The notes beneath the pieces were generated by a model. The model saw nothing but the letters and a program-made list of their open reading frames with translations, was not told the DNA's origin and did no database searches. DNA of 41,480 nucleotides from a virus, in IMG/VR virus record IMGVR_UViG_3300044556_000129, one strand, 5' to 3'. A program made the position numbers and the translations under genes. Positions 1 to 41,480 of the stretch are shown one piece after another (the stretch's first letter is position 1; every line of letters starts with the position of its first letter).

Positions 1-127
1 GCACTCTGTAAAATGTTGTCTTCATTGTCAAGTACCCACTTGATACGTTCTTCAAATGGGATTTTGTCAAGCCCTGCAAAGCCCGCACCTGCGATGTAGA
101 ACCATTTTAATGATTCTTCATTTGTCA
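1..127. repeat. Terminal overlap: identical to 41354-41480 (circular assembly artefact)
   Basis: Read directly: gcactctgtaaaatgttgtcttcattgtcaag...tcatttgtca occurs at both window ends. The junction lies inside the RNAP ORF. Confidence 0.95.
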
Positions 128-1418
128 AGGGGCTTGGTTCTGCAAAAAGAAGTAGTGCTTTCTGTGTGTCGTCCCCTTGAGGATTCAAGGCAGGACTCAT
201 TGGATAAATGCGTCCCCTATAATCGAGGTTCCATGGGAAATACACACGTTCGTAAACACTATACTTTTTAGCGCACCCTAACGTGGTATTTGTTCTAAGA
301 ACTTTGGATATTCTTGCTCTTTCATGCTTGTAGTACGCTGACAGGCGTTTTTTATGCGCCTCTAATTCTTTGGGCGTCGGGTCAATCAGACGGGGAATTT
401 TTGGTGTTTCGTCCGTTCTAGGAAGACCACCTAACCCACCATGATTTTCCATGATAGACACCATTGTTTCTAGTACTCGCTCATTGATAATAAATGGTGT
501 AGACTGTAAGGCATTTACACACTTGAAAACCCATGTCAAATCTAATTGCTCACATTTTTTTAAATAATGTTCCATGAACGTATTCTTTTGATTAAAATTA
601 GCACGGATGAAATGTGCAAAGGGGGCATTAGCTCCGTAATAAGCACCTTCCCACACTGTTGTCCACGGTTTAGGAGGGATGACACAAGGACTAAACTTAT
701 AACTATTCAACGCCATAATATCAATACTTTTCGCCCATGTCTGTACAAGCCAGTCATTCGCTTTGAGTAGCTTTCGATTCCCTTCTGCTTTATAGTCAAA
801 GTAGCCACTCCCTTGTATTACCGCTTCAAGGATAACAGTCATTAACTTATACAGCCCTTCTTTATCCATAGTTTGCGGCGTGAATTTCATAGTTTTATAT
901 GCTTTTCGTGCATATTGCACTTTAAATGTCATTTGCATACGGTGTTTTAGCCCATCTTCAAAAAATGCCCCATCTTGTCGTGTTGCTTGCTTTAAGTATT
1001 CGTAGCTAATAACTTCTTCCGTGAACGTAGACACAAGTTCATGTAAGTTACTGTTAAAGTCTACATATGTATCCTCCGAGTTATGCATGACAAACCCTAT
1101 CAAAGTGTTTAGAGTGGAGGTTATGCACGTCTTAATAAGTGTGTCTTCGCCCCCTTCATATAAGCTTTTAAGCTGATTTACAACACCTTGATATTTAGGC
1201 ACTACGCCACACTTTTTTTGGGGAAATAAAACGCTTTTAACGTTCATATAACAATCTGAAAAGACATGCTCCATCAGCTTACTACCTAATTTCGTTTCCC
1301 CTGCTGTGCCTTTTAAAGTCGCTTGTTCATATGTAGCACGTAGCACTTTTTCTGCAAAATCTTTTGATTCCTGCTCCAGCTTTAACTGCTCTTGCATAGT
1401 TCCTTTGATTTTTTCCAT
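1..1418 (-). CDS. T7-like single-subunit DNA-directed RNA polymerase, N-terminal part (continues at 41353 across the circular junction; about 869 aa in total)
   Basis: ATG at 1418-1416 is preceded by GGAAGG. The minus frame is in phase with ORF 40162..41319 after removing the 127-bp overlap. Hand translation of 126-300 gives VYFPWNLDYRGRIYPMSPALNPQGDD, matching T7 RNAP WFPYNMDWRGRVYAVSMFNPQGND. Confidence 0.95.
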   Translation of the reverse strand, partial: MEKIKGTMQEQLKLEQESKDFAEKVLRATYEQATLKGTAGETKLGSKLMEHVFSDCYMNVKSVLFPQKKCGVVPKYQGVVNQLKSLYEGGEDTLIKTCITSTLNTLIGFVMHNSEDTYVDFNSNLHELVSTFTEEVISYEYLKQATRQDGAFFEDGLKHRMQMTFKVQYARKAYKTMKFTPQTMDKEGLYKLMTVILEAVIQGSGYFDYKAEGNRKLLKANDWLVQTWAKSIDIMALNSYKFSPCVIPPKPWTTVWEGAYYGANAPFAHFIRANFNQKNTFMEHYLKKCEQLDLTWVFKCVNALQSTPFIINERVLETMVSIMENHGGLGGLPRTDETPKIPRLIDPTPKELEAHKKRLSAYYKHERARISKVLRTNTTLGCAKKYSVYERVYFPWNLDYRGRIYPMSPALNPQGDDTQKALLLFAEPSPLTNEESLKWFYIAGAGFAGLDKIPFEERIKWVLDNEDNILQS

Positions 1419-1545: not shown

Positions 1546-1929
1546 CTATCCCCGAACTTTTGTTTGGTGCTTAGGGTATAAATGTGGCGTGTCCTTGTTG
1601 TGATAACAGCGACGAGGTGCGGAGCCATCATATTCCTGCCACAAATGGCACATTTCATGCACCAATGTGGAATAGACTTCTTTGTCGGTTCTTTCGCCAT
1701 CCTTGAGGATGTAATCGGGATTGAGGGCAATTTCACCCCACTGTTCAACACCTTTGGCGTCCGTCCAAATCGAGGGTACGTAATAACCAAATGTATTGCG
1801 TTCGCGGTTTAAAGACAACATAACTTGTGGCAGGCTGTCTTTAAATAATGCTTCGTTGTAATAATCGAATGCCCCCTGTAAAGATTCATACTGTTTTTCT
1901 GTTGGTTTAACTAAAATTTTAGGTTCCAT
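1546..1929 (-). CDS. SprT-like zinc metalloprotease domain protein (early gene)
   Basis: 127-aa ORF with an HExxH motif (LVHEMCHLWQ) in an SprT-like context. RBS GGAAGGAAGG lies upstream. Confidence 0.6.
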   Translation of the reverse strand: MEPKILVKPTEKQYESLQGAFDYYNEALFKDSLPQVMLSLNRERNTFGYYVPSIWTDAKGVEQWGEIALNPDYILKDGERTDKEVYSTLVHEMCHLWQEYDGSAPRRCYHNKDTPHLYPKHQTKVRG

Positions 1930-1953
1930 AATGTACCTTCCTTCCTTGTAAAA

Positions 1954-2025
1954 TGGCTTGTCTCATCAGTATGGCGATTGCCAATCTACCATAGACAAGG
2001 GATTTTAGTCCCCTGTTTCGACACT
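1954..2025 (-). ncRNA. Hammerhead ribozyme, type II topology (HH-A)
   Basis: Minus strand: AGUGUC-GAAA-CAGGGGA-CUAAAA-UCCCUUG-UC^UAUGG-UA-GAUU-GGC-AAUC-G-CCAUA-CUGAUGAG-ACAAGCCA. The full catalytic core is present (CUGAUGA, GAAA, GUC cleavage triplet). Predicted cleavage is after C at 1994. Confidence 0.85.
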
Positions 2026-2278
2026 ATGCAAGAAAGATAAACATATAGAACTTTCCATCTCGATTAATACATATGTATTTACCTACGTCCTCTATATAGT
2101 CAGCTTTTCGTAAAAAATAGGTAGTACAAGAGGGTTCCATACGATTGAGGGGTTTAAAATGAGTGATTGAAAACGACATTCTTCCCTTATGAAAAATTCC
2201 CACGTCAGCAGTGTAACAATCAGTCCTACATACAACTTTTTTTCCTTCTAAAGCTTTATACATTTCTGTTCTTGTCAT
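2024..2278 (-). CDS. Hypothetical 84-aa protein flanked by the two hammerheads
   Basis: ATG ORF with RBS AGAGAGG upstream. Its stop codon UAG overlaps the first nucleotides of HH-A. Confidence 0.55.
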   Translation of the reverse strand: MTRTEMYKALEGKKVVCRTDCYTADVGIFHKGRMSFSITHFKPLNRMEPSCTTYFLRKADYIEDVGKYICINRDGKFYMFIFLA

Positions 2279-2304
2279 GATATATTACCTCTCTTTCAAT
2301 TCAT

Positions 2305-2376
2305 TGGCTTGTCTCATCAGTAGGCAGGTTGCCAGCCTTTCCTAGACACGAGGTTTTAACCCCGTGTTTCGACACT
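2305..2376 (-). ncRNA. Hammerhead ribozyme, type II topology (HH-B)
   Basis: Minus strand: AGUGUC-GAAA-CACGGGG-UUAAAA-CCUCGUG-UC^UAGG-AA-AGG-CUGGCAA-CCU-G-CCUA-CUGAUGAG-ACAAGCCA. The core is identical to HH-A, with compensatory changes in stems I and III. Predicted cleavage is after C at 2345. Confidence 0.85.
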
Positions 2377-2738
2377 TATTTCATATAAACTTTTAACAAT
2401 GTTTTAAGTGCCTTGTTTTCTGCGCGTAGTGCTTGTAATTCCTGTTGAATATGCTGTGCTTCTACTTTTCTGTCTATTTCTTTCTGGTGCTTTTCTATAA
2501 TTTGTGCCTTGTAGTTTTCCGTTTCTTCGTTTATACTTTGTGTTACTTTTTGTACTCGTTGTTTCCAGCGATTAATATAGTTCGGCAAGATGTCGTATTT
2601 TTTAGCTAATTCTTTTCTAGTACTTCCTGCTTCATATTCTTTAACTACCATTGCTTTAAACTCAGGTGTAAATCCCCTCCGTGTGCAGGTAAAGATTTTG
2701 TTAGCATTGATTTTTTGTGTAGTTTCTAAGTTTGTCAT
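2376..2738 (-). CDS. HTH DNA-binding protein, IS3 OrfA-like (HTH_Tnp_1 type) with a leucine zipper; first gene of the early operon
   Basis: RRGFTPEFKAMVVKEYEAGSTRKELAKKYDILPNYINRWKQ resembles the IS3/IS911 OrfA HTH, and the C-terminus is a heptad Leu coiled coil. No DDE transposase ORF follows. Confidence 0.6.
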   Translation of the reverse strand: MTNLETTQKINANKIFTCTRRGFTPEFKAMVVKEYEAGSTRKELAKKYDILPNYINRWKQRVQKVTQSINEETENYKAQIIEKHQKEIDRKVEAQHIQQELQALRAENKALKTLLKVYMK

Positions 2739-2757: not shown

Positions 2758-2881
2758 TTTGTAGTGTTGTTTGAGATTAAAAAAAAATATTTTGTAGTGT
2801 TTTGTAGTGCCTTTCGACTTGACCAAAGTATATCAAACAACACTACATTTGTCAATATAATTTTTGTAGTTTTTTGTAGTG
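2758..2881. promoter_or_regulatory. Operator-like repeat array: TTTGTAGTG x5 direct (2758, 2791, 2801, 2863, 2873) plus one inverted TGTAGTG (2841-2847)
   Basis: Read directly in the divergent intergenic region. The copies overlap both promoters. Confidence 0.6.
2827..2855 (-). promoter_or_regulatory. Sigma70-type early promoter (leftward) for the operon leading to RNAP
   Basis: Minus strand reads TTGACA, a 17-nt spacer (AATGTAGTGTTGTTTGA), then TATACT. The spacer contains a TGTAGTG operator copy. Confidence 0.6.
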
Positions 2882-2907
2882 ACTTTTAAAATTATTTTTG
2901 CTATAAT
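2879..2907 (+). promoter_or_regulatory. Sigma70-type promoter (rightward) for the RHH gene, with an extended -10
   Basis: GTGACT, 17-nt spacer, TGcTATAAT. The -35 overlaps operator copy 2873-2881. Confidence 0.55.
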
Positions 2908-2934: not shown

Positions 2935-3108
2935 ATGAGCAATCAAAAAATGGAAAATTCAGTCTTTATGCAAATTCGTATTGAGAAAGACACACGTGAC
3001 AAATTTAGGAAACTTTGTAAAGAGAAAGCAATTAATAGTAGTGAATTATTACGTATGCTTATACTCAAGTGGATAAAAAATAATGAGAAAGAATCAAGAC
3101 ACAAGTAA
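2935..3108 (+). CDS. Ribbon-helix-helix (Arc/CopG-like) DNA-binding protein, 57 aa (below the ORF-track cutoff)
   Basis: Hand translation: MSNQKMENSVFMQIRIEKDTRDKFRKLCKEKAINSSELLRMLILKWIKNNEKESRHK. RBS AGAGGTGA lies 5 nt upstream. The pattern is beta-strand then two helices. Confidence 0.6.
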   Translation: MSNQKMENSVFMQIRIEKDTRDKFRKLCKEKAINSSELLRMLILKWIKNNEKESRHK

Positions 3109-4196: not shown

Positions 4197-5306
4197 ATGC
4201 CAAGAACACGACAAAGAAGAAATAAGGGTGAGGGTTCGATAACCAAGACACCCAATGGAAAGTACAAAGCAACCATTACGATTGGAGTTGGAATTGATGG
4301 TAAGCAAAAGAGAAAGTCTGTAACTAGAGACACCAAGCGAGAAGTAATAGACGCCATCACGGAGCTAAGACACAAATATAACATAGGTGATGTATCAAAA
4401 GTGGTGTCTAAGAGCGTCGAGGACGTTTGTGATGAATTTTTAGACATCAAGGAGCAAGCTGTGTCTTTAGCTACCTTTAAATCGTATAGGACACACATTA
4501 ATGCCTTCAAAGAAGTATTTGGGGGTATGATGATAGATAATGTAACAAAGACCATGATTGAGGATTATTATAAATCATTGATAAATAGTCCACATCATTA
4601 TAAATCATCATCCCTGCGGACGAAAAAGACAGTGTTGTCTTCCCTCTTCAACGAAGCGAAGCGTGCAGGATATATAAAGGACAACGTATGGGATACTGCG
4701 AATATACAACTAAAGCGTGTCTTACCCAAAGCGGCCACTATGGTTCTTCCGACACCTGAGCAGTTCCAAAAGCTCTTAGAGGAAGCGGAAAAGTATGCTC
4801 ATTGGTATTATGTACTCCTCTATCTGGCTTCTGTTACTGGAATGAGACGAGGAGAGCTATTAGGTCTTAAATGGGAATGTGTGGATAAAGACACCAAGAC
4901 TATCACCATCAATAATCAATTAAATATAGAAGGTGTCGACAGTCCGTTAAAGACACCTGCATCCTATAGGACAATTTATGTAACCCCAAAGGCATTTGAG
5001 GCTTTAGACACCCTACCTAATAAAAGTCCCTATGTCTTTTCAAGGGACAATGGGATGTTTCGGCCTGTATCGGTGTCATGGCTACAGGAGATTAATGCTG
5101 TTGTCTTTAAGGCCGCTCATATGCCAAAAGGATTTACATTTCATGACATAAGACACTATCATGCCACCCAGCTTTTAAAACATGGTATAAATCCAAAGGT
5201 GGTGAGCAGGAGATTAGGACACACATCTGTGGTTACGACGCTCAATCTGTACTTTAATTATCTTCCCAGTATGGACGAGGAAGCAAGCACAATCTTAGAT
5301 GAATGA
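4197..5306 (+). CDS. int: Tyrosine recombinase / phage integrase
   Basis: 369 aa with catalytic signature R (TGMRRGELLGLKW), HxxR (HDIRHYHATQL) and H...Y (LGHTSVVTTLNLYFNY). RBS AAAGGAGAAG. Confidence 0.93.
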   Translation: MPRTRQRRNKGEGSITKTPNGKYKATITIGVGIDGKQKRKSVTRDTKREVIDAITELRHKYNIGDVSKVVSKSVEDVCDEFLDIKEQAVSLATFKSYRTHINAFKEVFGGMMIDNVTKTMIEDYYKSLINSPHHYKSSSLRTKKTVLSSLFNEAKRAGYIKDNVWDTANIQLKRVLPKAATMVLPTPEQFQKLLEEAEKYAHWYYVLLYLASVTGMRRGELLGLKWECVDKDTKTITINNQLNIEGVDSPLKTPASYRTIYVTPKAFEALDTLPNKSPYVFSRDNGMFRPVSVSWLQEINAVVFKAAHMPKGFTFHDIRHYHATQLLKHGINPKVVSRRLGHTSVVTTLNLYFNYLPSMDEEASTILDE

Positions 5307-9240: not shown

Positions 9241-9834
9241 TTACAGCTCCTCGTACCATTCATTCATATCAACATTTGTGTCCCCGATATATTCCTTATC
9301 ACTCCACTGCCAACCTGCTACATGCTTATCAGGATACGTCTGAGCAAAACCATTGTATCCACGGTAATCTGCAATCCAATAGGGGACGTAATCAGCAAGC
9401 AAGTGAGGCCGAATAGAGTTTGTCATGTAATCTGTACATTTCAGCGTGGAAGTGTAAATACCGGCACTGTAGCCTGCTTCATTACAAGTGACAATAAAAG
9501 CGGAGCAGACAGCCGTTGTGTCTACGCCATCTTCAAAACATTCATCCGCTTCACAGTCAAACCAAATTCCCATAGGGGGTACATCAGCACCGAGCAAGTC
9601 CAAAACTGTCTGTGCTTCTTCCTTTGCTCTTTCTGGTGTCTTAGCGTGGGAGAAGCAGTAGACACCCCAAGGGATACCCCGTGTCTTACATTCCTCTACG
9701 TGGCGGATCCATGTGTCTTCTTCTGTACAACCTTCCGAGATTTTAACAATGACACCTTGTACGCCAGCGGCTTCCACGGCGTCATAATCAATATCTTTCT
9801 GATAATAGGAAACATCAATTACTTTACTAGTCAT
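9241..9834 (-). CDS. GH25 muramidase endolysin
   Basis: The N-terminus KVIDVSYYQKDIDYDAVEAAGVQGVIVKISEG is the GH25 (Glyco_hydro_25) signature. Confidence 0.88.
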   Translation of the reverse strand: MTSKVIDVSYYQKDIDYDAVEAAGVQGVIVKISEGCTEEDTWIRHVEECKTRGIPWGVYCFSHAKTPERAKEEAQTVLDLLGADVPPMGIWFDCEADECFEDGVDTTAVCSAFIVTCNEAGYSAGIYTSTLKCTDYMTNSIRPHLLADYVPYWIADYRGYNGFAQTYPDKHVAGWQWSDKEYIGDTNVDMNEWYEEL

Positions 9835-10294
9835 CTAACTTATCCACCTTCTTCTCATGTGCAATCTGTGCTAATGCACCTCGAATAAAACTAGGGATAT
9901 ACTGACCATAACCCATACGATCAATATTTTCCACAATACTTAAAGCTTCCACAATTGCGAAGGCCCCAATAAAAAGCGTCCGTACCATATGAGTGTGCAT
10001 AGCAGTATCTAATAAGACACCCAGCCCAATGATAAGGAACATTGTGGCTTTTTTGTATAGGCCGTGTGTAGCAATCGAACTTGCGAAAGCATGGAGTTTA
10101 AAGGAAGCCCAAAGGCCCGTGAGAATATCACAGGCCACAAGGACAACCAAGGCATTAATCTGCTCATCCACGCCACCCACAAGCTGATTGAAACACAACC
10201 AAGCAATAGAAAAAAGACAGCCAATCTTTACCTCTGTGGCTGTCCATAAATTCCATAATGTGTTAACCATTTTGTGTAATGTACCTCGTTTCAT
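9827..10294 (-). CDS. Holin (Firmicute toxin-secretion/phage-lysis holin family, Phage_holin_4_1-like)
   Basis: Three TM segments, with ...ACDILTGLWASF...GLYKKATMFLIIGLGVLLD...AFAIVEALSIVENIDRMG. Confidence 0.75.
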   Translation of the reverse strand: MKRGTLHKMVNTLWNLWTATEVKIGCLFSIAWLCFNQLVGGVDEQINALVVLVACDILTGLWASFKLHAFASSIATHGLYKKATMFLIIGLGVLLDTAMHTHMVRTLFIGAFAIVEALSIVENIDRMGYGQYIPSFIRGALAQIAHEKKVDKLDD

Positions 10295-24023: not shown

Positions 24024-24857
24024 CTAAGCAGGATTGCTAATAACACCCATAAAGGTGGATTCCGGACGCAAACCACCAATACCAATAGCGTATTTAGCGA
24101 TTAACTGGTCTGCCTGATATTCAGCACGACGAGCTGTTTCAAAGCTGATGTCTTTCAAGGACAAGACACCAACAGAAGATTTGTGACAAATCAAAAGTGG
24201 GGACTTGCTGGCATATGCCGACGGGAAGGCATGACCATCCCCTTGGATAGTATTAGTCGGGTCATCACCACCCTGTGTCAGATGAGGACACTCAATAATT
24301 TGGAAACCATCCATGCTGATGATATTGGAATTAGTCAGCGTAGCGGCGGCGCCATAATTGCTGTTCAAGAAATCAAGGTTCGTTGCTAGTGCGGCGTGGA
24401 TTTCAGGAGTGACAAAGCAATAACGATCACCCTGCGGTACATAATTCTGCGCCATTTTCGCCTTTACTTCAAGCAGAATATCACGGACAGCAATACCTGT
24501 TTCTTTGTTAATTCCAAGTGTGGAACCAGTTGCGAGTTTCTTTTCAACGACTCCGCCTTTACCAAGACCAGCAACGTTTTCCGTAGTGTTCAGGGCTTCC
24601 TTAGCAACCTCTGCGAGAATAGAAGCATCCATTGAGATTGCCAGTGCTTCGCCGAGCTGTGTAGCATAAGGAGAACGGAAATCATAATGTGCGATAAATT
24701 CGTCAAGGTCAAATACCAAGCAGTCAGTCGTCAACAGACCATCAATAACAATGGTACGTTCACCCTGCTGAATGTTTTCGCGAAGGTCGTCAAGACTCTT
24801 ACCACTTTTAAGGTAATGTGCTTTAGTGCGACCAAATACAGGGAACTGAGCGGATTT
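24024..24857 (-). CDS. Major capsid protein (T7 gp10-like), exon 2
   Basis: The frame is open from 24860 (an in-frame TAA lies just upstream). Hand translation KSAQFPVFGRTKAHYLKSGKSLDDLRENIQQGERTIVIDGLLTTDCLVFD aligns with T7 gp10 KSAQFPVLGRTQAAYLAPGENLDDKRKDIKHTEKVITIDGLLTADVLIYD. There is no ATG or RBS at its 5' end. Confidence 0.9.
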   Translation of the reverse strand, partial: KSAQFPVFGRTKAHYLKSGKSLDDLRENIQQGERTIVIDGLLTTDCLVFDLDEFIAHYDFRSPYATQLGEALAISMDASILAEVAKEALNTTENVAGLGKGGVVEKKLATGSTLGINKETGIAVRDILLEVKAKMAQNYVPQGDRYCFVTPEIHAALATNLDFLNSNYGAAATLTNSNIISMDGFQIIECPHLTQGGDDPTNTIQGDGHAFPSAYASKSPLLICHKSSVGVLSLKDISFETARRAEYQADQLIAKYAIGIGGLRPESTFMGVISNPA

Positions 24858-25473
24858 CAGTTATCTTTACACAAGGACGCTACCCCTTGTGTGTGCATTT
24901 GCACCTCATAGTCACCTATGAGCTGAGACTATATCTTCAAGAATACTACTGGTACTTTTTGATATATGCAATCATATTCTCTATAGTGTCTATATTTTCT
25001 TCCATCAGACCAAGAGCTGTGTTGCATTTCGTACAAAGTAGACCTCTAAGTTTTCCAGTCTTATGGTCATGATCTCCTGTTAGCCGAGTGTATCTCGTAC
25101 TTCTAAGGGACTTTCCACATATGGCACATCTGCCATGCTGTTCTTTAAAGGCTCTATCATATGCTTCTTGTGTCCATCCTGTGTCTCGTACCGTTGATAA
25201 GCGGCTGAGACATACCTTACATTCAGAACGGTATTTGCCACTATCTTTTCTGAAATAAAATTCTGATAGTGGTTTTTCTTTACCACACAAGCGACATATC
25301 TTTGTATTCTCACTCCCCATTTCGGACGGCTTCGTCCTACTCCCTTTCGGGATAGTCGTTGAACGTTCCTTACTTGTCAGCAAGGCTTCGTTGCTAGTTG
25401 TCTCTGTCTGTTCGCGAGATATTCCAGCAGTTAAAGGAGTGTTTAAAGAGAGGCAAGTCCGCATTTACATTTC
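24858..25473 (-). mobile_element. Group I-like intron (616 nt) with an embedded homing-endonuclease gene, interrupting the capsid gene
   Basis: The exon junction is fixed by the T7 alignment (..SSG|KSAQFPV..). The 5' exon ends in U and the intron ends in G. The 3' end carries three consecutive perfect hairpins (24905-24922 with a GUGA loop, 24893-24904, 24869-24892), and the 5' part has a CCC-GAAA-GGG hairpin. Confidence 0.7.
24946..25320 (-). CDS. Endonuclease VII-family HNH (homing) endonuclease
   Basis: GRCAICGKSLRSTRYTRLTGDHDHKTGKLRGLLCTKCNTALG aligns with T4 endo VII GKCLICQREL...HLDHDHEL...GKVRGLLCNLCNAAEG. The likely start is ATG 25320. The ORF-track start at 25464 would read through the structured 5' intron RNA. 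Confidence 0.8.
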   Translation of the reverse strand: MGSENTKICRLCGKEKPLSEFYFRKDSGKYRSECKVCLSRLSTVRDTGWTQEAYDRAFKEQHGRCAICGKSLRSTRYTRLTGDHDHKTGKLRGLLCTKCNTALGLMEENIDTIENMIAYIKKYQ

Positions 25474-25653
25474 ACCACTCTGAATTGTACGTTTGATAAA
25501 TTTACCATTCGTTACGGAAGCACGTGCAAATGCCGTGAGAGTTTCACCACTAAATACTTTAAGGGCAAGAGCAAGTTTGTCGGCATCTGTGTTTGCCTTT
25601 GTACCAATCGCCATAGGAGTTGCAATTTTAATATCTGCCATAATTAATATCAT
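25474..25653 (-). CDS. Major capsid protein (T7 gp10-like), exon 1
   Basis: DKLALALKVFSGETLTAFARASVTNGKFIKRTIQSG aligns with T7 gp10 DKLALFLKVFGGEVLTAFARTSVTTSRHMVRSISSG. The ORF then runs 2 codons into the intron and stops. Confidence 0.9.
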
Positions 25654-25742: not shown

Positions 25743-26537
25743 CTAGAACAATTTAGAATATTTAACTTTTCGATACACTTCACGTGTAAACTTTGCATCT
25801 TTCTGATACCGAGGGTCAGACATATCTTTAATCATTTCATCCGTCGATTCATAGCCACTGCGGTCTACAGACGGAGCGGCACTGCCGACGATGGAAGGAC
25901 GCTGAGTACCATACTGTCTCACCATCTGACCTTTAATACCTTCAAGGGTCATGCGAATCTGCATGAGATTTTCACTGTCCAATGTAGCATTAAAGGCATT
26001 AATGACATCCTGATTTTGGGAAGACACAAACTGCTGAATACGTGCAAATTCTTCCTGCCCACCTGCCAATGCATATACATCATTGACAAAGCGAGTGGAA
26101 GCGGCTTCCCAACCTGCGAGAATACCATCAACAACGGCTTTAGGATACCCTGCTTTTTCAAGGGTTTCATAAGACTGCTGACTAATACTACCATTGTTCA
26201 TGTATTCTGTTTCGAGTCCTGCAAAATCAACACCCTTAGTTACTAAGTCTTTTTCGACACCATCAAGGGCTTCATGTGCATTGGTCAACTGCTGTTCAGA
26301 CGTCTGTTCACCTTTCGTAGCTTCTTCCTGTTCAGGCTGTGTGTCTGTCTGAGAATCGTCCGTACCCTGTGTGTCTTCTCCTGCTACATCATTCAGTACA
26401 TTATCTACACTTTCAGCAGTATCTTTTACAGACAACTGAGTATAAGCAGATGTAGACACGGTGATATTATTCTGCGTCTGTTCCGCCTGTGCTTCTACCT
26501 GCTGTGTGTCTACCACTTTATTTTCATTTTCATCCAT
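25743..26537 (-). CDS. Scaffolding protein (T7 gp9 position)
   Basis: 264 aa, acidic, with a low-complexity N-terminus. Lies between the portal and capsid genes. Confidence 0.6.
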   Translation of the reverse strand: MDENENKVVDTQQVEAQAEQTQNNITVSTSAYTQLSVKDTAESVDNVLNDVAGEDTQGTDDSQTDTQPEQEEATKGEQTSEQQLTNAHEALDGVEKDLVTKGVDFAGLETEYMNNGSISQQSYETLEKAGYPKAVVDGILAGWEAASTRFVNDVYALAGGQEEFARIQQFVSSQNQDVINAFNATLDSENLMQIRMTLEGIKGQMVRQYGTQRPSIVGSAAPSVDRSGYESTDEMIKDMSDPRYQKDAKFTREVYRKVKYSKLF

Positions 26538-33248: not shown

Positions 33249-35033
33249 CTACTTCTTCAAATGATGATAGAAACGCTTACCTGCTTCCTTCTGTCTTGCT
33301 TCGGAGAAGTTACTAATGCGTTTCAGATACCCAATAACACGAGTACCATAATCTACATCAGTGCTACCACATTTCACACAATGGTTTTCTGTGTCTGTGT
33401 TGATGTAGCCGCAATTATTGCAAATCGTACACAAGACATTTGTTGTCCAATACTGCACACCATATTCAGAGCAAAGTTTATACAAATGCATAAACTGTTC
33501 CCAACTGAGTATCTGTTCAAGATTAAGGTGTAAAGCTGAACCACCATCAAGGTACTGAACAATATCCTTTGAATACAGTTTGAGCTTATCAAGCACGTTC
33601 ACCTTCGTGTCTTCTACAGGGTAGAAATAACTGTTGTAACAATCACGAGGTACATAAAGACCTGCTTCCTTGTCCCATTTAGCATTTTTAACACCGAGAT
33701 TTTCGGCAGGGACAAACTCAGTATTAAATCGGACGCCGTACTCAGACAAAGCGGCCTTATTAGACATCGTAAGGAAAGACAACAAGGACTGTAAATACTT
33801 CGGATATTCCTTATCTTTCACTTCACCTTTCTTGTCTCTCAAGTACTCAAAGTATTCCAAGACACCATTCACACCAATGGTCAAGAACTGCTTATCAATG
33901 TCCATAAACCCCTGTGTGTAAGCAGGGAGTAAACCTGCATCAATGTAACCTTTCAGCACTTCTCGATGCGCCAGCAGATACTTATGTACTCTATCCACTA
34001 CTTCATCCAGCTTGACATCACACTGACCAATACGATTAATGTTCAAGCTAATAACACGTGCGGAACCCGTGACAACACCACCTGCACCCAAGGTGTAACT
34101 GAAGGTGTTATCAGCTAATTCATTGCGTAAACGACAACAAGAAGCAAGACTATCTACTCTGTCAGACATATAGACAAAGAAAGACAAGCCTTTCTCCTGT
34201 TCTTCTGCCAGCCCCTGCACAAACTTAGTGTCTTTAAAACCACCTGCACCATCCGTAAGCAATGCGGCTGTTACAACAGGGAACGTCAGTAATTCTTTTT
34301 CACGCTCCTTTCTAAACCAACTCAAGAAGAATTTCTGCAAGTGATAGGTGCTTTCAATGTCTACCTGAGTACCATCAGGATAGAAAAAGCCCCCGAACAT
34401 CTCTTTTAAGTAGTCGTGGTCAAATACGCTGATGTTCCAAAATACAGACTGGTCGCCACGCGCGCTCGCTGGCTGATTCAGTGCATAGACAACACCCTGA
34501 AATTCCTGCTCTACTTCTTTATGGTGCGCCACAAGATATTCTTTACCCCACTGCTTACGAGCAAAGTAATCAAACATGTGAAGGAACTCAACAGTAGCGA
34601 TTGCACCACTGAAATTACTTGCAATCTGATAAACAAGATTGACAAAGGAACCGCAAAAACTCTGCAAGTTCTTCGGTGCTTTAGACACACCGCCTAAACA
34701 CTTCGTACCTTCCAACAAGAATGGGTACAAAGTAATACTGGCACAATAAGGCTTTAAAGATGTTTCATCGTGCGTATAGATATAATGATTTGCAAGGTCA
34801 TCTTCATAAGCCTTTGCCATATCTTCCCCGAACATCTGCGTCAACTTATCTTTAACTAACTTACGGTTAATCTGAATGGTGTCAGGCTTGAATAATTCAG
34901 CTTCCAACCCTGCGATTGTCTTCTGCGTAACATTGCTATTCGCATCTACTTTAGAAGCCGTTGCGGCATTAGAAGACACCATATAATCATGAATGTATTT
35001 AATCTTTTCTTTTAAATCAACGTTAGGTAACAT
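33249..35033 (-). CDS. nrdD: Anaerobic (class III) ribonucleoside-triphosphate reductase
   Basis: The C-terminus has a Zn ribbon (CTICNNCGY...CVKCGS) followed by the glycyl-radical motif GTRVIGYLKR. It is 594 aa and adjacent to the activase gene. Confidence 0.9.
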   Translation of the reverse strand: MLPNVDLKEKIKYIHDYMVSSNAATASKVDANSNVTQKTIAGLEAELFKPDTIQINRKLVKDKLTQMFGEDMAKAYEDDLANHYIYTHDETSLKPYCASITLYPFLLEGTKCLGGVSKAPKNLQSFCGSFVNLVYQIASNFSGAIATVEFLHMFDYFARKQWGKEYLVAHHKEVEQEFQGVVYALNQPASARGDQSVFWNISVFDHDYLKEMFGGFFYPDGTQVDIESTYHLQKFFLSWFRKEREKELLTFPVVTAALLTDGAGGFKDTKFVQGLAEEQEKGLSFFVYMSDRVDSLASCCRLRNELADNTFSYTLGAGGVVTGSARVISLNINRIGQCDVKLDEVVDRVHKYLLAHREVLKGYIDAGLLPAYTQGFMDIDKQFLTIGVNGVLEYFEYLRDKKGEVKDKEYPKYLQSLLSFLTMSNKAALSEYGVRFNTEFVPAENLGVKNAKWDKEAGLYVPRDCYNSYFYPVEDTKVNVLDKLKLYSKDIVQYLDGGSALHLNLEQILSWEQFMHLYKLCSEYGVQYWTTNVLCTICNNCGYINTDTENHCVKCGSTDVDYGTRVIGYLKRISNFSEARQKEAGKRFYHHLKK

Positions 35034-40161: not shown

Positions 40162-41480
40162 TTATGCAAAGCAATACTTACTATTTACTACATCATCAAG
40201 ATTTAAGTTCCCTTTCGATGGTATTTTAGGTATTTCTTTTCCTTCGGGGAGCAAGTACTCAACATCCTTTAACCATTCCTCTAAGTAATTGTGGTCTTTG
40301 TACATATTGACTAATTCAGTACGAATAGACTTAAATAAGTCCCCTGCATGTTCTATATCTGTACCAAAACTATCATGAATCATGAAGAAGTTGATATTTC
40401 CTTTTTCAGCTTGATTCATGATTACTCTTTGCATGTGACACGCATCCATACTGTGGATAAAGTTAGGGGCGATTGCTTGGGCTTGTCCCCTTGTGTCTAT
40501 GTTGGTGCTATCTTGGGGAACATAGATACGAATGAAACCACCATTAAAGCGCATACGGCATGTTTCCATGTTAGGTACAAATTTATTCTGTTGGATTGGT
40601 AAGCCATTGGGGCTTGTCCATGCTACGACTTCTCCGTTCTTTCCAATAAGAGAAGCGACCTTTTTCAGCCATTCCATGCCCTCTACGGCCTTTACAACCG
40701 TGGTGGTTACAGCGTCCCAAATCAATTTTGCCATGTAGTTTGCGGCCTGTGAGCGACTCAAGAAGATAGGGCTGTCTTTATGTTCATCAATCCATGGCTT
40801 GATAATGTCGGACTTGAGGTTTTCGGAGAAACCATACGTCCTTGAACCATACGCAAGAGTCATGACAGAACGCTTGCAAACTTTACGCTTGATACCGTCC
40901 GAACCGAATTTCTCGCGGCCATACATCAGCCATTCAGACGCAAGTTCTTTTGTGCCATATGCAATGCACTTTTTGCCCTTGTTGTCAAGTACATATTCGC
41001 CTGTTTTCTTATCTTTTTTGAAGTCATCTGCTGTCCCCTCTAATGCGTCTTTATGTAAGACAACGTTTACTTTATCAGCCACGACTTGATAAATATCATG
41101 AACTTTTTCATCGGGTATAAGATTTACATTTTTTCCACCCACTTCATCAGCAAGAAGCATGGAGAAGTGTTGCAAACCTGAACACGTTCCATCAAAGCTA
41201 ATTGGAAGTCCCGACTTGTAGCCAATTGCGGAACCGTTGTGTTCTGCTTGATAGACACGGAGTCTTTCAAATTCAAAACAGAAAGACAAGAAGCACATAG
41301 GACTTTCGTCACCTGCCACTTCGTTCCACCACGTGTACGTAAGAGGGGAAGCGGCACTCTGTAAAATGTTGTCTTCATTGTCAAGTACCCACTTGATACG
41401 TTCTTCAAATGGGATTTTGTCAAGCCCTGCAAAGCCCGCACCTGCGATGTAGAACCATTTTAATGATTCTTCATTTGTCA
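40162..41480 (-). CDS. T7-like single-subunit RNA polymerase, C-terminal part (ORF open to the window edge; continues into 1-1418)
   Basis: DESPMCFLSFCFEF...PISFDGTCSGLQHFSMLLADEVGGKNVNL...RSVMTLAYGS...IAPNFIHSMDACHM...FFMIHDSFGT...KGNLNLDDVVNSKYCFA aligns with T7 RNAP DSPFCFLAFCFEY...[29 protein letters not shown]...IAPNFVHSQDGSHL...FALIHDSFGT...KGNLNLRDILESDFAFA. Confidence 0.97.
   Translation of the reverse strand, partial: TNEESLKWFYIAGAGFAGLDKIPFEERIKWVLDNEDNILQSAASPLTYTWWNEVAGDESPMCFLSFCFEFERLRVYQAEHNGSAIGYKSGLPISFDGTCSGLQHFSMLLADEVGGKNVNLIPDEKVHDIYQVVADKVNVVLHKDALEGTADDFKKDKKTGEYVLDNKGKKCIAYGTKELASEWLMYGREKFGSDGIKRKVCKRSVMTLAYGSRTYGFSENLKSDIIKPWIDEHKDSPIFLSRSQAANYMAKLIWDAVTTTVVKAVEGMEWLKKVASLIGKNGEVVAWTSPNGLPIQQNKFVPNMETCRMRFNGGFIRIYVPQDSTNIDTRGQAQAIAPNFIHSMDACHMQRVIMNQAEKGNINFFMIHDSFGTDIEHAGDLFKSIRTELVNMYKDHNYLEEWLKDVEYLLPEGKEIPKIPSKGNLNLDDVVNSKYCFA
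41354..41480. repeat. Second copy of the 127-bp terminal overlap
   Basis: Exact repeat of 1-127. Confidence 0.95.

Follow-up and report, generated by a model that had tools for sequence, protein, structure and literature searches.

This study concerns two RNA motifs predicted to cleave themselves and the small gene between them in a viral DNA of 41,480 nucleotides (nt), IMG/VR record IMGVR_UViG_3300044556_000129, which was analysed over its whole length and is referred to here as the window. On its minus strand two type II hammerhead ribozymes with pseudoknot tails, designated HH-B and HH-A, bracket an open reading frame (ORF) encoding 84 amino acids (aa), ORF84, such that cleavage at both would release an RNA of 351 nt. 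In the direction of transcription the features are:

2375..2304, minus strand: HH-B, type II hammerhead with pseudoknot tail (sequence layout, pattern and model scores)
2344..1994, minus strand: predicted excised monocistronic RNA, 351 nt (coordinates from the sequence)
2278..2024, minus strand: ORF84, complete, 84 aa, a conserved small early protein
2024..1953, minus strand: HH-A, type II hammerhead with pseudoknot tail (sequence layout, pattern and model scores)

Both hammerheads follow one layout, in which (N)UGUC and GAAA are succeeded by an 8-bp hairpin that opens with A and closes with U, a C that completes the GUC triplet, a further hairpin with UGGC in its loop, and finally CUGAUGAG, ACA and AGCCA. 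For HH-B this reads, on the minus strand, UGUC-GAAA, stem III ACACGGGG/CCUCGUGU, the C at the cleavage site (C|), stem I UAGG..CCUA with the loop CUGGCAA, and CUGAUGAG-ACA-AGCCA, and the layout of HH-A is the same. Tested against the hammerhead core (C3-U4-G5-A6-N7-G8-A9 ... G12-A13-A14 ... A15.1-U16.1-H17), the two copies each possess CUGAUGA, GAAA, the A-U closing pair and the GUC cleavage triplet, and the G10.1-C11.1 and A15.1-U16.1 pairs are present in both. The elements are ordered II(3')-GAAA-III hairpin-H-I hairpin-CUGAUGA-II(5'), with stems I and III looped and stem II open, which is the type II topology, and the model alignments of both copies agree with it. Cleavage is predicted between C2345 and U2344 in HH-B, and between C1994 and U1993 in HH-A. 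Most of the hammerheads described by Perreault et al. (2011, PMC3088659) have a pseudoknot of 4 bp or more that joins loop I to the tail 3' of stem II, and both copies have it as well: UGGC at 2334..2331 pairs with GCCA at 2308..2305 in HH-B, and UGGC at 1983..1980 with GCCA at 1957..1954 in HH-A (4 bp each). The stem II strands UGUC/GACA are the same in the two copies, and in HH-A the 3' strand of this stem starts right after the UAG stop codon of ORF84, UGUC lying next to UAG.

The composite pattern TGTCGAAAC-N30-60-CTGATGAGACA matched the window twice (2310-2374 and 1959-2023), against 0.00 matches expected from 100 shuffles, and neither a third hammerhead nor a copy with a C at core position 4 (U4C) was found in the window. 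The minimum free energy (MFE) fold of HH-B recovered stems II and III, with part of the CUGAUGA core drawn into stem I. A first-pass annotation, made from the letters of the DNA, had already placed two minus-strand hammerheads around a 351-nt RNA running from 2344 to 1994; the layout, the pattern search, and the covariation and covariance model (R2) described below all bear this out, together with the length and the cleavage sites after C2345 and after C1994. It had missed that both ribozymes run 5-6 nt further in the 3' direction, where they form the type II pseudoknot tail.

An exact-pattern scan returned more than 120 viral (IMG/VR) contigs and 16 bacterial genome contigs carrying the same kind of element, and an alignment of 148 distinct hammerhead copies (A2) was examined for covariation. 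In this alignment 88.4% of the cells were standard-paired, against 69% in column shuffles (0/500 reached the observed value) and no more than 42% when the partners were slid; the covariation score was 0.443, as opposed to 0.125 for shuffled columns (likewise reached by none of 500) and at most 0.134 for the slid controls. Compensatory changes, affecting both sides of a pair, were seen at six of the eight stem III pairs and at all eight stem I pairs. The A15.1-U16.1 column is AU in 148/148 family members. In the family pseudoknot the outer pair is U-A, U-G or C-G and the inner GGC/GCC is invariant, this invariance being partly imposed by the search pattern, as is the near-invariance of GUC/GAC in stem II; the fourth stem II pair, U-A as in the window, occurs in only 50 of the 148 copies.

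The R2 covariance model, trained on 89 copies that are each less than 66% identical to either window copy, gave 60.4 bits for HH-B and 56.8 bits for HH-A (E about 1e-13) and nothing further in the 41-kb window. Because the training set had been fished with a pattern drawn from the window's own conserved core, the independent evidence in these scores comes from the stems alone. Other model scores, besides those of R2, were 72.8 bits for HH-B and 63.9 bits for HH-A. At its gathering score Rfam reported neither hammerhead, its sole report in the window being a group I intron elsewhere, and at E <= 10 on 1 kb it returned just a partial RAGATH-1 match. When 91-nt slices were scored over the full model length of Rfam Hammerhead_II (RF02276), HH-A reached 22.1 bits and HH-B 19.0 bits, short of the gathering score of 37; this reflects the sensitivity limit of the seed, with no structural feature missing. 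As Hammerhead_II scores this phage subfamily (the window copies, and the related loci numbered L007-L142 in our set) far below threshold, standard annotation will miss such ribozymes, and the Rfam type II model misses a large and well-supported group, a single exact pattern having sufficed to match all the viral contigs counted above. At the DNA level, a similarity search of positions 1500-2800 against 50,697 GenBank phages gave no match, and that collection hence offers no annotated relative. We regard it as nearly certain that both ribozymes are real.

The gene that they bracket is also real. ORF84 is preceded by the ribosome-binding site (RBS) GAGAGG at 2293..2288, 9 nt ahead of the ATG at 2278, and its 22 homologues share 61-88% identity with a protein-like pattern of conservation. 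The first-pass annotation had put an RBS and a complete ORF of no recognisable function inside the fragment, and it was right on both counts: ORF84 falls into no Pfam or PHROG family, and its AlphaFold 2 (AF2) model, a N-terminal helix followed by seven strands (predicted local distance difference test, pLDDT, 81.5), found no significant fold match when searched with Foldseek against the PDB and BFVD. By established hammerhead chemistry, the excised RNA would have a hairpin at either end, stem I at the 5' terminus with a hydroxyl (5'-OH) and stem III at the 3' terminus with a 2',3'-cyclic phosphate. As a whole the 351-nt fragment folds no better than its shuffles: its MFE is -70.5 kcal/mol, where shuffled sequences average -73.3 (z = +0.63). 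Within it, the Shine-Dalgarno (SD) region of ORF84 (2283-2300, minus strand) is complementary to the last codons of the ORF (2027-2045), with a pairing energy of -13.7 kcal/mol, the best of 75 windows. We considered this duplex as an end-joining device and rejected it: the equivalent pairing ranks 67th of 75 in L001 and 56th of 75 in L002, and for this lack of conservation it is probably incidental.

The operon in which the unit lies is made up of the following features:

2935-3108, plus strand: RHH (ribbon-helix-helix) repressor-like gene, divergent from the early operon
2855..2827, minus strand: early promoter, strong, sigma-70-like, TTGACA-17-TATACT with extended -10 (consensus match only)
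2738..2376, minus strand: upstream cistron, HTH_Tnp_1-like DNA-binding protein with a helix-turn-helix (HTH), 120 aa (Pfam E = 1.6e-9)
1929..1546, minus strand: downstream cistron, SprT-like metallopeptidase truncated to 127 aa (SprT')
3..1418, minus strand: 5' part of a T7-type single-subunit RNA polymerase gene, continuing at 41478..40165 (synteny)

The order is thus promoter, HTH gene, HH-B, ORF84, HH-A, SprT-like gene and T7-type RNA polymerase, which places HH-B and HH-A between cistrons of a host-transcribed early operon. The promoter is set among operator-like repeats of CACTACAAAA, which are probably operator sites; these motifs recur around divergent promoters both in the window (2760-2885, minus strand) and in a related locus (L003:3840-3990). 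The truncated SprT-like gene corresponds to residues 1-113 of a 223-aa homologue, and since it takes the same form in five independent assemblies it is a real variant and no sequencing error; the same genome, truncated gene included, is present in several independent assemblies. Samples in which this phage occurs include JGI 3300043822 and 3300043933 as well as SRR35197851 and SRR35197852.

How the hammerheads are distributed relative to cistrons was examined by mapping them in 21 loci that encode ORF84 homologues, with three more short contigs inspected. On the 3' side the association is without exception, the distance from the ORF84 stop codon to the start of the hammerhead being 0-3 nt in 21/21 loci. 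On the 5' side, a hammerhead adjoins ORF84 only in the window, L001, L002/L150 and L168, and in all of these an HTH-type or other cistron precedes it. In L152 and L156 an extra ORF intervenes and the upstream ribozyme is about 630 nt distant, making the unit bicistronic, and in most lineages (L003-6, L143-149, L151, L154, L155) ORF84 is the first cistron after the operator/promoter region and has no 5' ribozyme. The first-pass annotation had suggested looking for ORF84 homologues that are likewise flanked by hammerheads; such flanking is therefore universal on the 3' side and confined to the few loci just named on the 5' side. Every additional small ORF of L145 and L147 is followed by a hammerhead of its own. 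Hammerhead number hence tracks cistron boundaries, and a strictly intercistronic placement with a copy number that follows the cistron number is the signature of an intercistronic processing element. More widely, in the 1.4 Mb of loci that were fetched, 2-6 hammerheads were counted on each of 34 out of 131 distinct locus-strands, and the 51 units between neighbouring ribozymes measure 236-2190 nt (median 493) and mostly hold one ORF each. Some phage or prophage loci have arrays of up to six copies, among them L086 (6 copies) and L095 and L133 (4 copies each), with spacings of 236-1400 nt.

Modular behaviour of this kind could also be read in terms of DNA exchange, the ~72-nt hammerheads moving as [RBS-ORF-HH] modules and serving as homology patches for the gain and loss of early genes, with cleavage of secondary importance. 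The gene content between hammerheads does differ from relative to relative with the ribozymes retained, any additional small ORF brings its own copy, and the two copies of L145 are nearly identical. However, the strong compensatory covariation of the stems indicates selection on RNA structure and not on DNA identity alone, and HH-A and HH-B differ at so many stem positions that they should be poor substrates for recombination. We therefore hold this explanation to be quite unlikely.

Our preferred reading, to which we assign a probability of roughly 60%, is that both HH-B and HH-A are active hammerheads of the type II pseudoknot family and serve as intercistronic self-processing sites of the early operon. 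Host polymerase would transcribe the operon, and each ~72-nt motif would fold as it emerges from the polymerase and cleave co-transcriptionally after C17, so that the early transcript would be resolved into three mRNAs, encoding the HTH protein, ORF84 and SprT'/RNA polymerase, respectively. With just the 3-4 bp of the open stem II to hold them, the products should dissociate, making cleavage effectively irreversible, a property that suits processing rather than ligation. The 5'-OH that begins each downstream mRNA would then be enclosed by the stem I hairpin and its pseudoknot, with the RBS following about 15-25 nt later, and each upstream mRNA would terminate in a 2',3'-cyclic phosphate carried by the stem III hairpin; every cistron would in this manner gain ends that are defined and structured and, without recourse to host RNases, a stability and a translation rate of its own. 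While we observe the motifs, the covariation of their stems and a placement that is strictly intercistronic, cleavage in vivo and its effects on stability and translation are what we infer from them. Precedent comes from three prophage hammerhead arrays that cleave in vitro, one of them also in vivo in E. coli, in a study that proposed an mRNA-processing role for phage arrays (Perreault et al. 2011, PMC3088659); a 2019 review restated the idea and treated the role as open (PMC6765202). The simpler alternative of the first-pass annotation, namely cistron separation with differential mRNA stability, is the one favoured by the comparative data, a 3' hammerhead always being present and a 5' hammerhead occurring only where there is an upstream cistron.

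Several observations weigh against this reading. At equilibrium the 920-nt precursor gives stem II a very low probability (3e-5 and 5e-3), in a model that ignores co-transcriptional folding and tertiary contacts. A 5'-OH can destabilise RNA in Firmicutes, and RNase J1 reportedly degrades the downstream cleavage product of the glmS ribozyme (Collins et al. 2007), so that cleavage could shift stability in either direction; a fully paired 5' end should hinder this enzyme. In some relatives a plain hairpin takes the place of the hammerhead at the intercistronic position: L153 (2420-2520), L160 (1-80) and L166 (480-590) have, between ORF84 and the cistron upstream of it, a conserved hairpin (GGCCATAAGCC..TGGCC), which is possibly an alternative processing or stability element. 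Finally, the closest relatives of the window carry a core, CCGAUGAG, with the U4C change where the window has the canonical CUGAUGAG (L001:2106-2178 and 2454-2525; L002:3906-3977 and 4255-4327; L003:4273-4344; L147:3601-3678). Lowered in vitro activity has been reported for U4C (Perreault et al. 2011, discussion, PMC3088659), although this core is reported to be still viable in a viroid, and its presence in the closest relatives implies that fast cleavage is not universally selected.

The same polymorphism brings up an explanation in which cleavage is tunable or conditional and lowers or times the expression of what lies downstream, the choice of U4 or C4 setting the cleaved fraction; for example, the SprT'/RNA polymerase mRNA might be limited by decay triggered by its 5'-OH, or its translation might be uncoupled. 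C4 occurs in about 18% of the distinct family members and is dominant among the closest relatives, U4 and C4 copies are mixed within single arrays (L147, L156), and in the window a hammerhead stands directly ahead of the block with the RNA polymerase gene, which in a T7-like phage acts as the master switch. Perreault et al. (PMC3088659) suggested that regulation may act on slow variants. Yet the motifs are minimal, with no ligand-binding or sensor domain visible, the window copies have canonical cores of the fast type, and a stem I hairpin at the extreme 5' end would argue for protection over decay. The U4C polymorphism may tune the cleaved fraction, but as an account of the locus as a whole we consider regulation of this sort unlikely.

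The bracketed geometry had led the first-pass annotation to propose a circular ORF84 mRNA, in which the two ends of the 351-nt RNA dock through a hybrid stem II and are joined by the reverse hammerhead reaction or by a host RtcB-type ligase to give an exonuclease-resistant product. The anatomy behind this proposal is right: the unit is bracketed by two same-strand ribozymes, and the fragment, which has stem I and CUGAUGAG-ACA at its 5' end and UGUC-GAAA-stem III-GUC at its 3' end, can rebuild from its halves one hybrid hammerhead with both ends at the scissile site. RtcB uses 5'-OH and 2',3'-cyclic phosphate ends, which match the predicted end chemistry. In the nearest-neighbour ensemble (ViennaRNA), the hybrid stem II forms in the excised fragment with a probability of about 0.45 and costs +0.55 kcal/mol to enforce. 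Nonetheless, this probability depends on the SD-to-ORF-tail duplex, which is absent from L001 and L002, and across relatives it ranges from 0.00 to 0.54; given also that the same model allots the native stem II a probability of just 1e-3 to 1e-5 or so in the precursor, we judged hybrid stem II thermodynamics to be unreliable as evidence either way.

Comparative data speak more directly to this proposal. In most lineages ORF84 is a first cistron without a 5' hammerhead, and its mRNA would accordingly carry a 5'-triphosphate, an end that this route to a circle could not use. The first-pass annotation had pointed to the identity of the stem II strands, and identical they are, but since GUC/GAC is nearly invariant across the family as a 3-bp feature, their identity carries no weight as an argument for circles. 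Among 50 neighbouring ribozyme pairs in distinct arrays, 43 were uninformative (both GUC/GAC) and two were discriminating, those of L095 and L061, where stem II is compensated within each ribozyme (3/3 pairs) and the hybrid is mismatched (2/3). Co-adaptation of stem II across neighbours was on this basis rejected, and although the numbers are thin, the two loci point to selection on the contiguous ribozyme. We also rejected the argument that 351 nt is a multiple of three: 17 of 51 units are divisible by three, which is the chance frequency, and ORF84 has a stop codon. The fragment is not rod-like, as its z-score indicates. Pfam scans of 28 phage proteins revealed no RNA ligase, and the short public assemblies that carry ORF84 included no permuted or cleavage-terminated contigs, being ordinary genomic fragments collinear with the genome. 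One contig of the same phage, from a library of unspecified type (Logan SRR35197851; L163:1), begins 10 nt to the 3' side of where HH-B is predicted to cleave and continues through HH-A, a start that cannot be counted as evidence of cleavage.

The possibility of circular or spliced products from phage arrays was itself raised by Perreault et al. (2011, PMC3088659), who looked for them and could not detect them. A circular ORF84 mRNA is hence an idea that is not new and that is unsupported here, although the geometry permits it, and we think it very improbable; the general claim, that cells circularise the hammerhead-bracketed single-gene units of phage early operons through host RtcB or the reverse reaction, we would put, if anything, a little lower. 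If true, it would mean natural circular and translatable mRNAs in a DNA phage, with a near-invariant stem II that lets any neighbouring ribozymes close a circle. Circles of this kind, if found, would be without precedent among phage mRNAs, but the evidence now available favours the ordinary separation of cistrons.

The hybrid geometry that would close a circle would equally allow ligation in trans, a form of splicing in which the 3' half on the HTH fragment and the 5' half on the SprT'/RNA polymerase fragment reassemble and are joined, removing ORF84 from some transcripts. This too was proposed by Perreault et al. (PMC3088659) and went undetected by them; it would require a bimolecular reaction held together by just 3-4 bp, and it comes without any supporting comparative signal. 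We regard it as extremely improbable.

The RNA polymerase gene is split across the ends of the window, with about 40 residues matched at both. This makes the window a sequence that is circularly permuted, or else terminally redundant; it is a complete genome of a T7-like temperate phage. Nearly all genes lie on the minus strand, the exceptions being the small RHH repressor gene and the following:

4197-5306, plus strand: integrase

Pfam searches identified replication genes (endonuclease I, primase-helicase, family A DNA polymerase and exonuclease) and structural genes (connector, capsid assembly protein and a Gp10A-like capsid protein), along with NrdD, a GH25 lysin and a holin. The last three (NrdD at 33249-35033, GH25 lysin at 9241-9834 and holin_4_1 at 9827-10294, minus strand) suggest an anaerobic Gram-positive (gut) host. 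Separately, a group I intron lies at 24905-25491 on the minus strand (Rfam 64.4 bits) and encodes an Endonuclease_7-type protein (ORF 24946-25464, minus strand). It is flanked by ORFs at 24024-24734 and 25743-26537 and is situated just upstream of the T7-type major capsid gene, which it probably interrupts, the Gp10A-like match beginning at profile position 40.

Type II pseudoknot hammerheads are known from prophages, where they often flank single genes (Perreault et al. 2011, PMC3088659; RF02276), and the tandem arrangement around a prophage gene has thus been on record since 2011. The window copies share with those hammerheads the core, the type II permutation and the UGGC/GCCA pseudoknot, as well as the setting in a prophage near the integrase with ribozymes flanking one small gene. 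Relative to the Rfam RF02276 model they differ in score (19-22 bits against 37 for gathering), in a stem II of 3-4 bp where the consensus has 2, and in a bulged stem I. They differ from the 2011 examples in belonging to the early operon of a T7-like temperate phage, just upstream of the RNA polymerase gene, and in having relatives with U4C. What is new here is modest: this early-operon setting, a ribozyme that always adjoins the stop codon of ORF84, the many U4C cores and the sub-threshold Rfam scores. The role of the hundreds of phage and prophage hammerheads is formally open (2019 review, PMC6765202), and the present locus offers a compact test case, with two canonical-core ribozymes, one 84-aa gene, an early promoter and an adjoining RNA polymerase gene. 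Its relatives supply natural variants for such a test in the form of the U4C core, the presence or absence of the upstream ribozyme, and the plain hairpin in its place.

The circular RNAs of viroids, satellites and retrozymes arise from tandem hammerheads (PMC7761336, PMC5680766, PMC7229834), and the first-pass annotation had drawn this parallel. It extends to the bracketing, with two same-strand hammerheads around a unit of a few hundred nt whose ends can rebuild one ribozyme, and no further. Those RNAs use type III or type I ribozymes with long closing helices, are rod-like and mostly non-coding, and are replicated or retrotransposed, whereas the unit in the window has type II ribozymes with an open stem II of 3-4 bp, an mRNA-like fold (z = +0.63) and one ORF with a stop codon. 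Two-sided flanking is not conserved here, and the fold is neither rod-like nor highly branched.

A further counterpart may be found in T7, whose early genes are separated by RNase III processing sites (Dunn and Studier). In both cases the sites lie between cistrons of an early operon that the host polymerase transcribes and to which the phage RNA polymerase gene belongs, and the outcome would be the same, namely mRNAs of one cistron each that end in a 3' hairpin, an equivalence that is suggested by position. The means differ: in T7 a host enzyme leaves a 5'-phosphate and a 3'-OH, whereas here the RNA would cut itself and leave a 5'-OH and a 2',3'-cyclic phosphate. On the engineering side, synthetic insulators of the RiboJ type use a hammerhead upstream of the RBS to standardise the 5' end of the downstream mRNA. 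A self-cleaving hammerhead upstream of an RBS is common to both, but RiboJ is engineered and of type III, while the ribozymes described here are natural, of type II, and would also form the 3' end of the preceding cistron.

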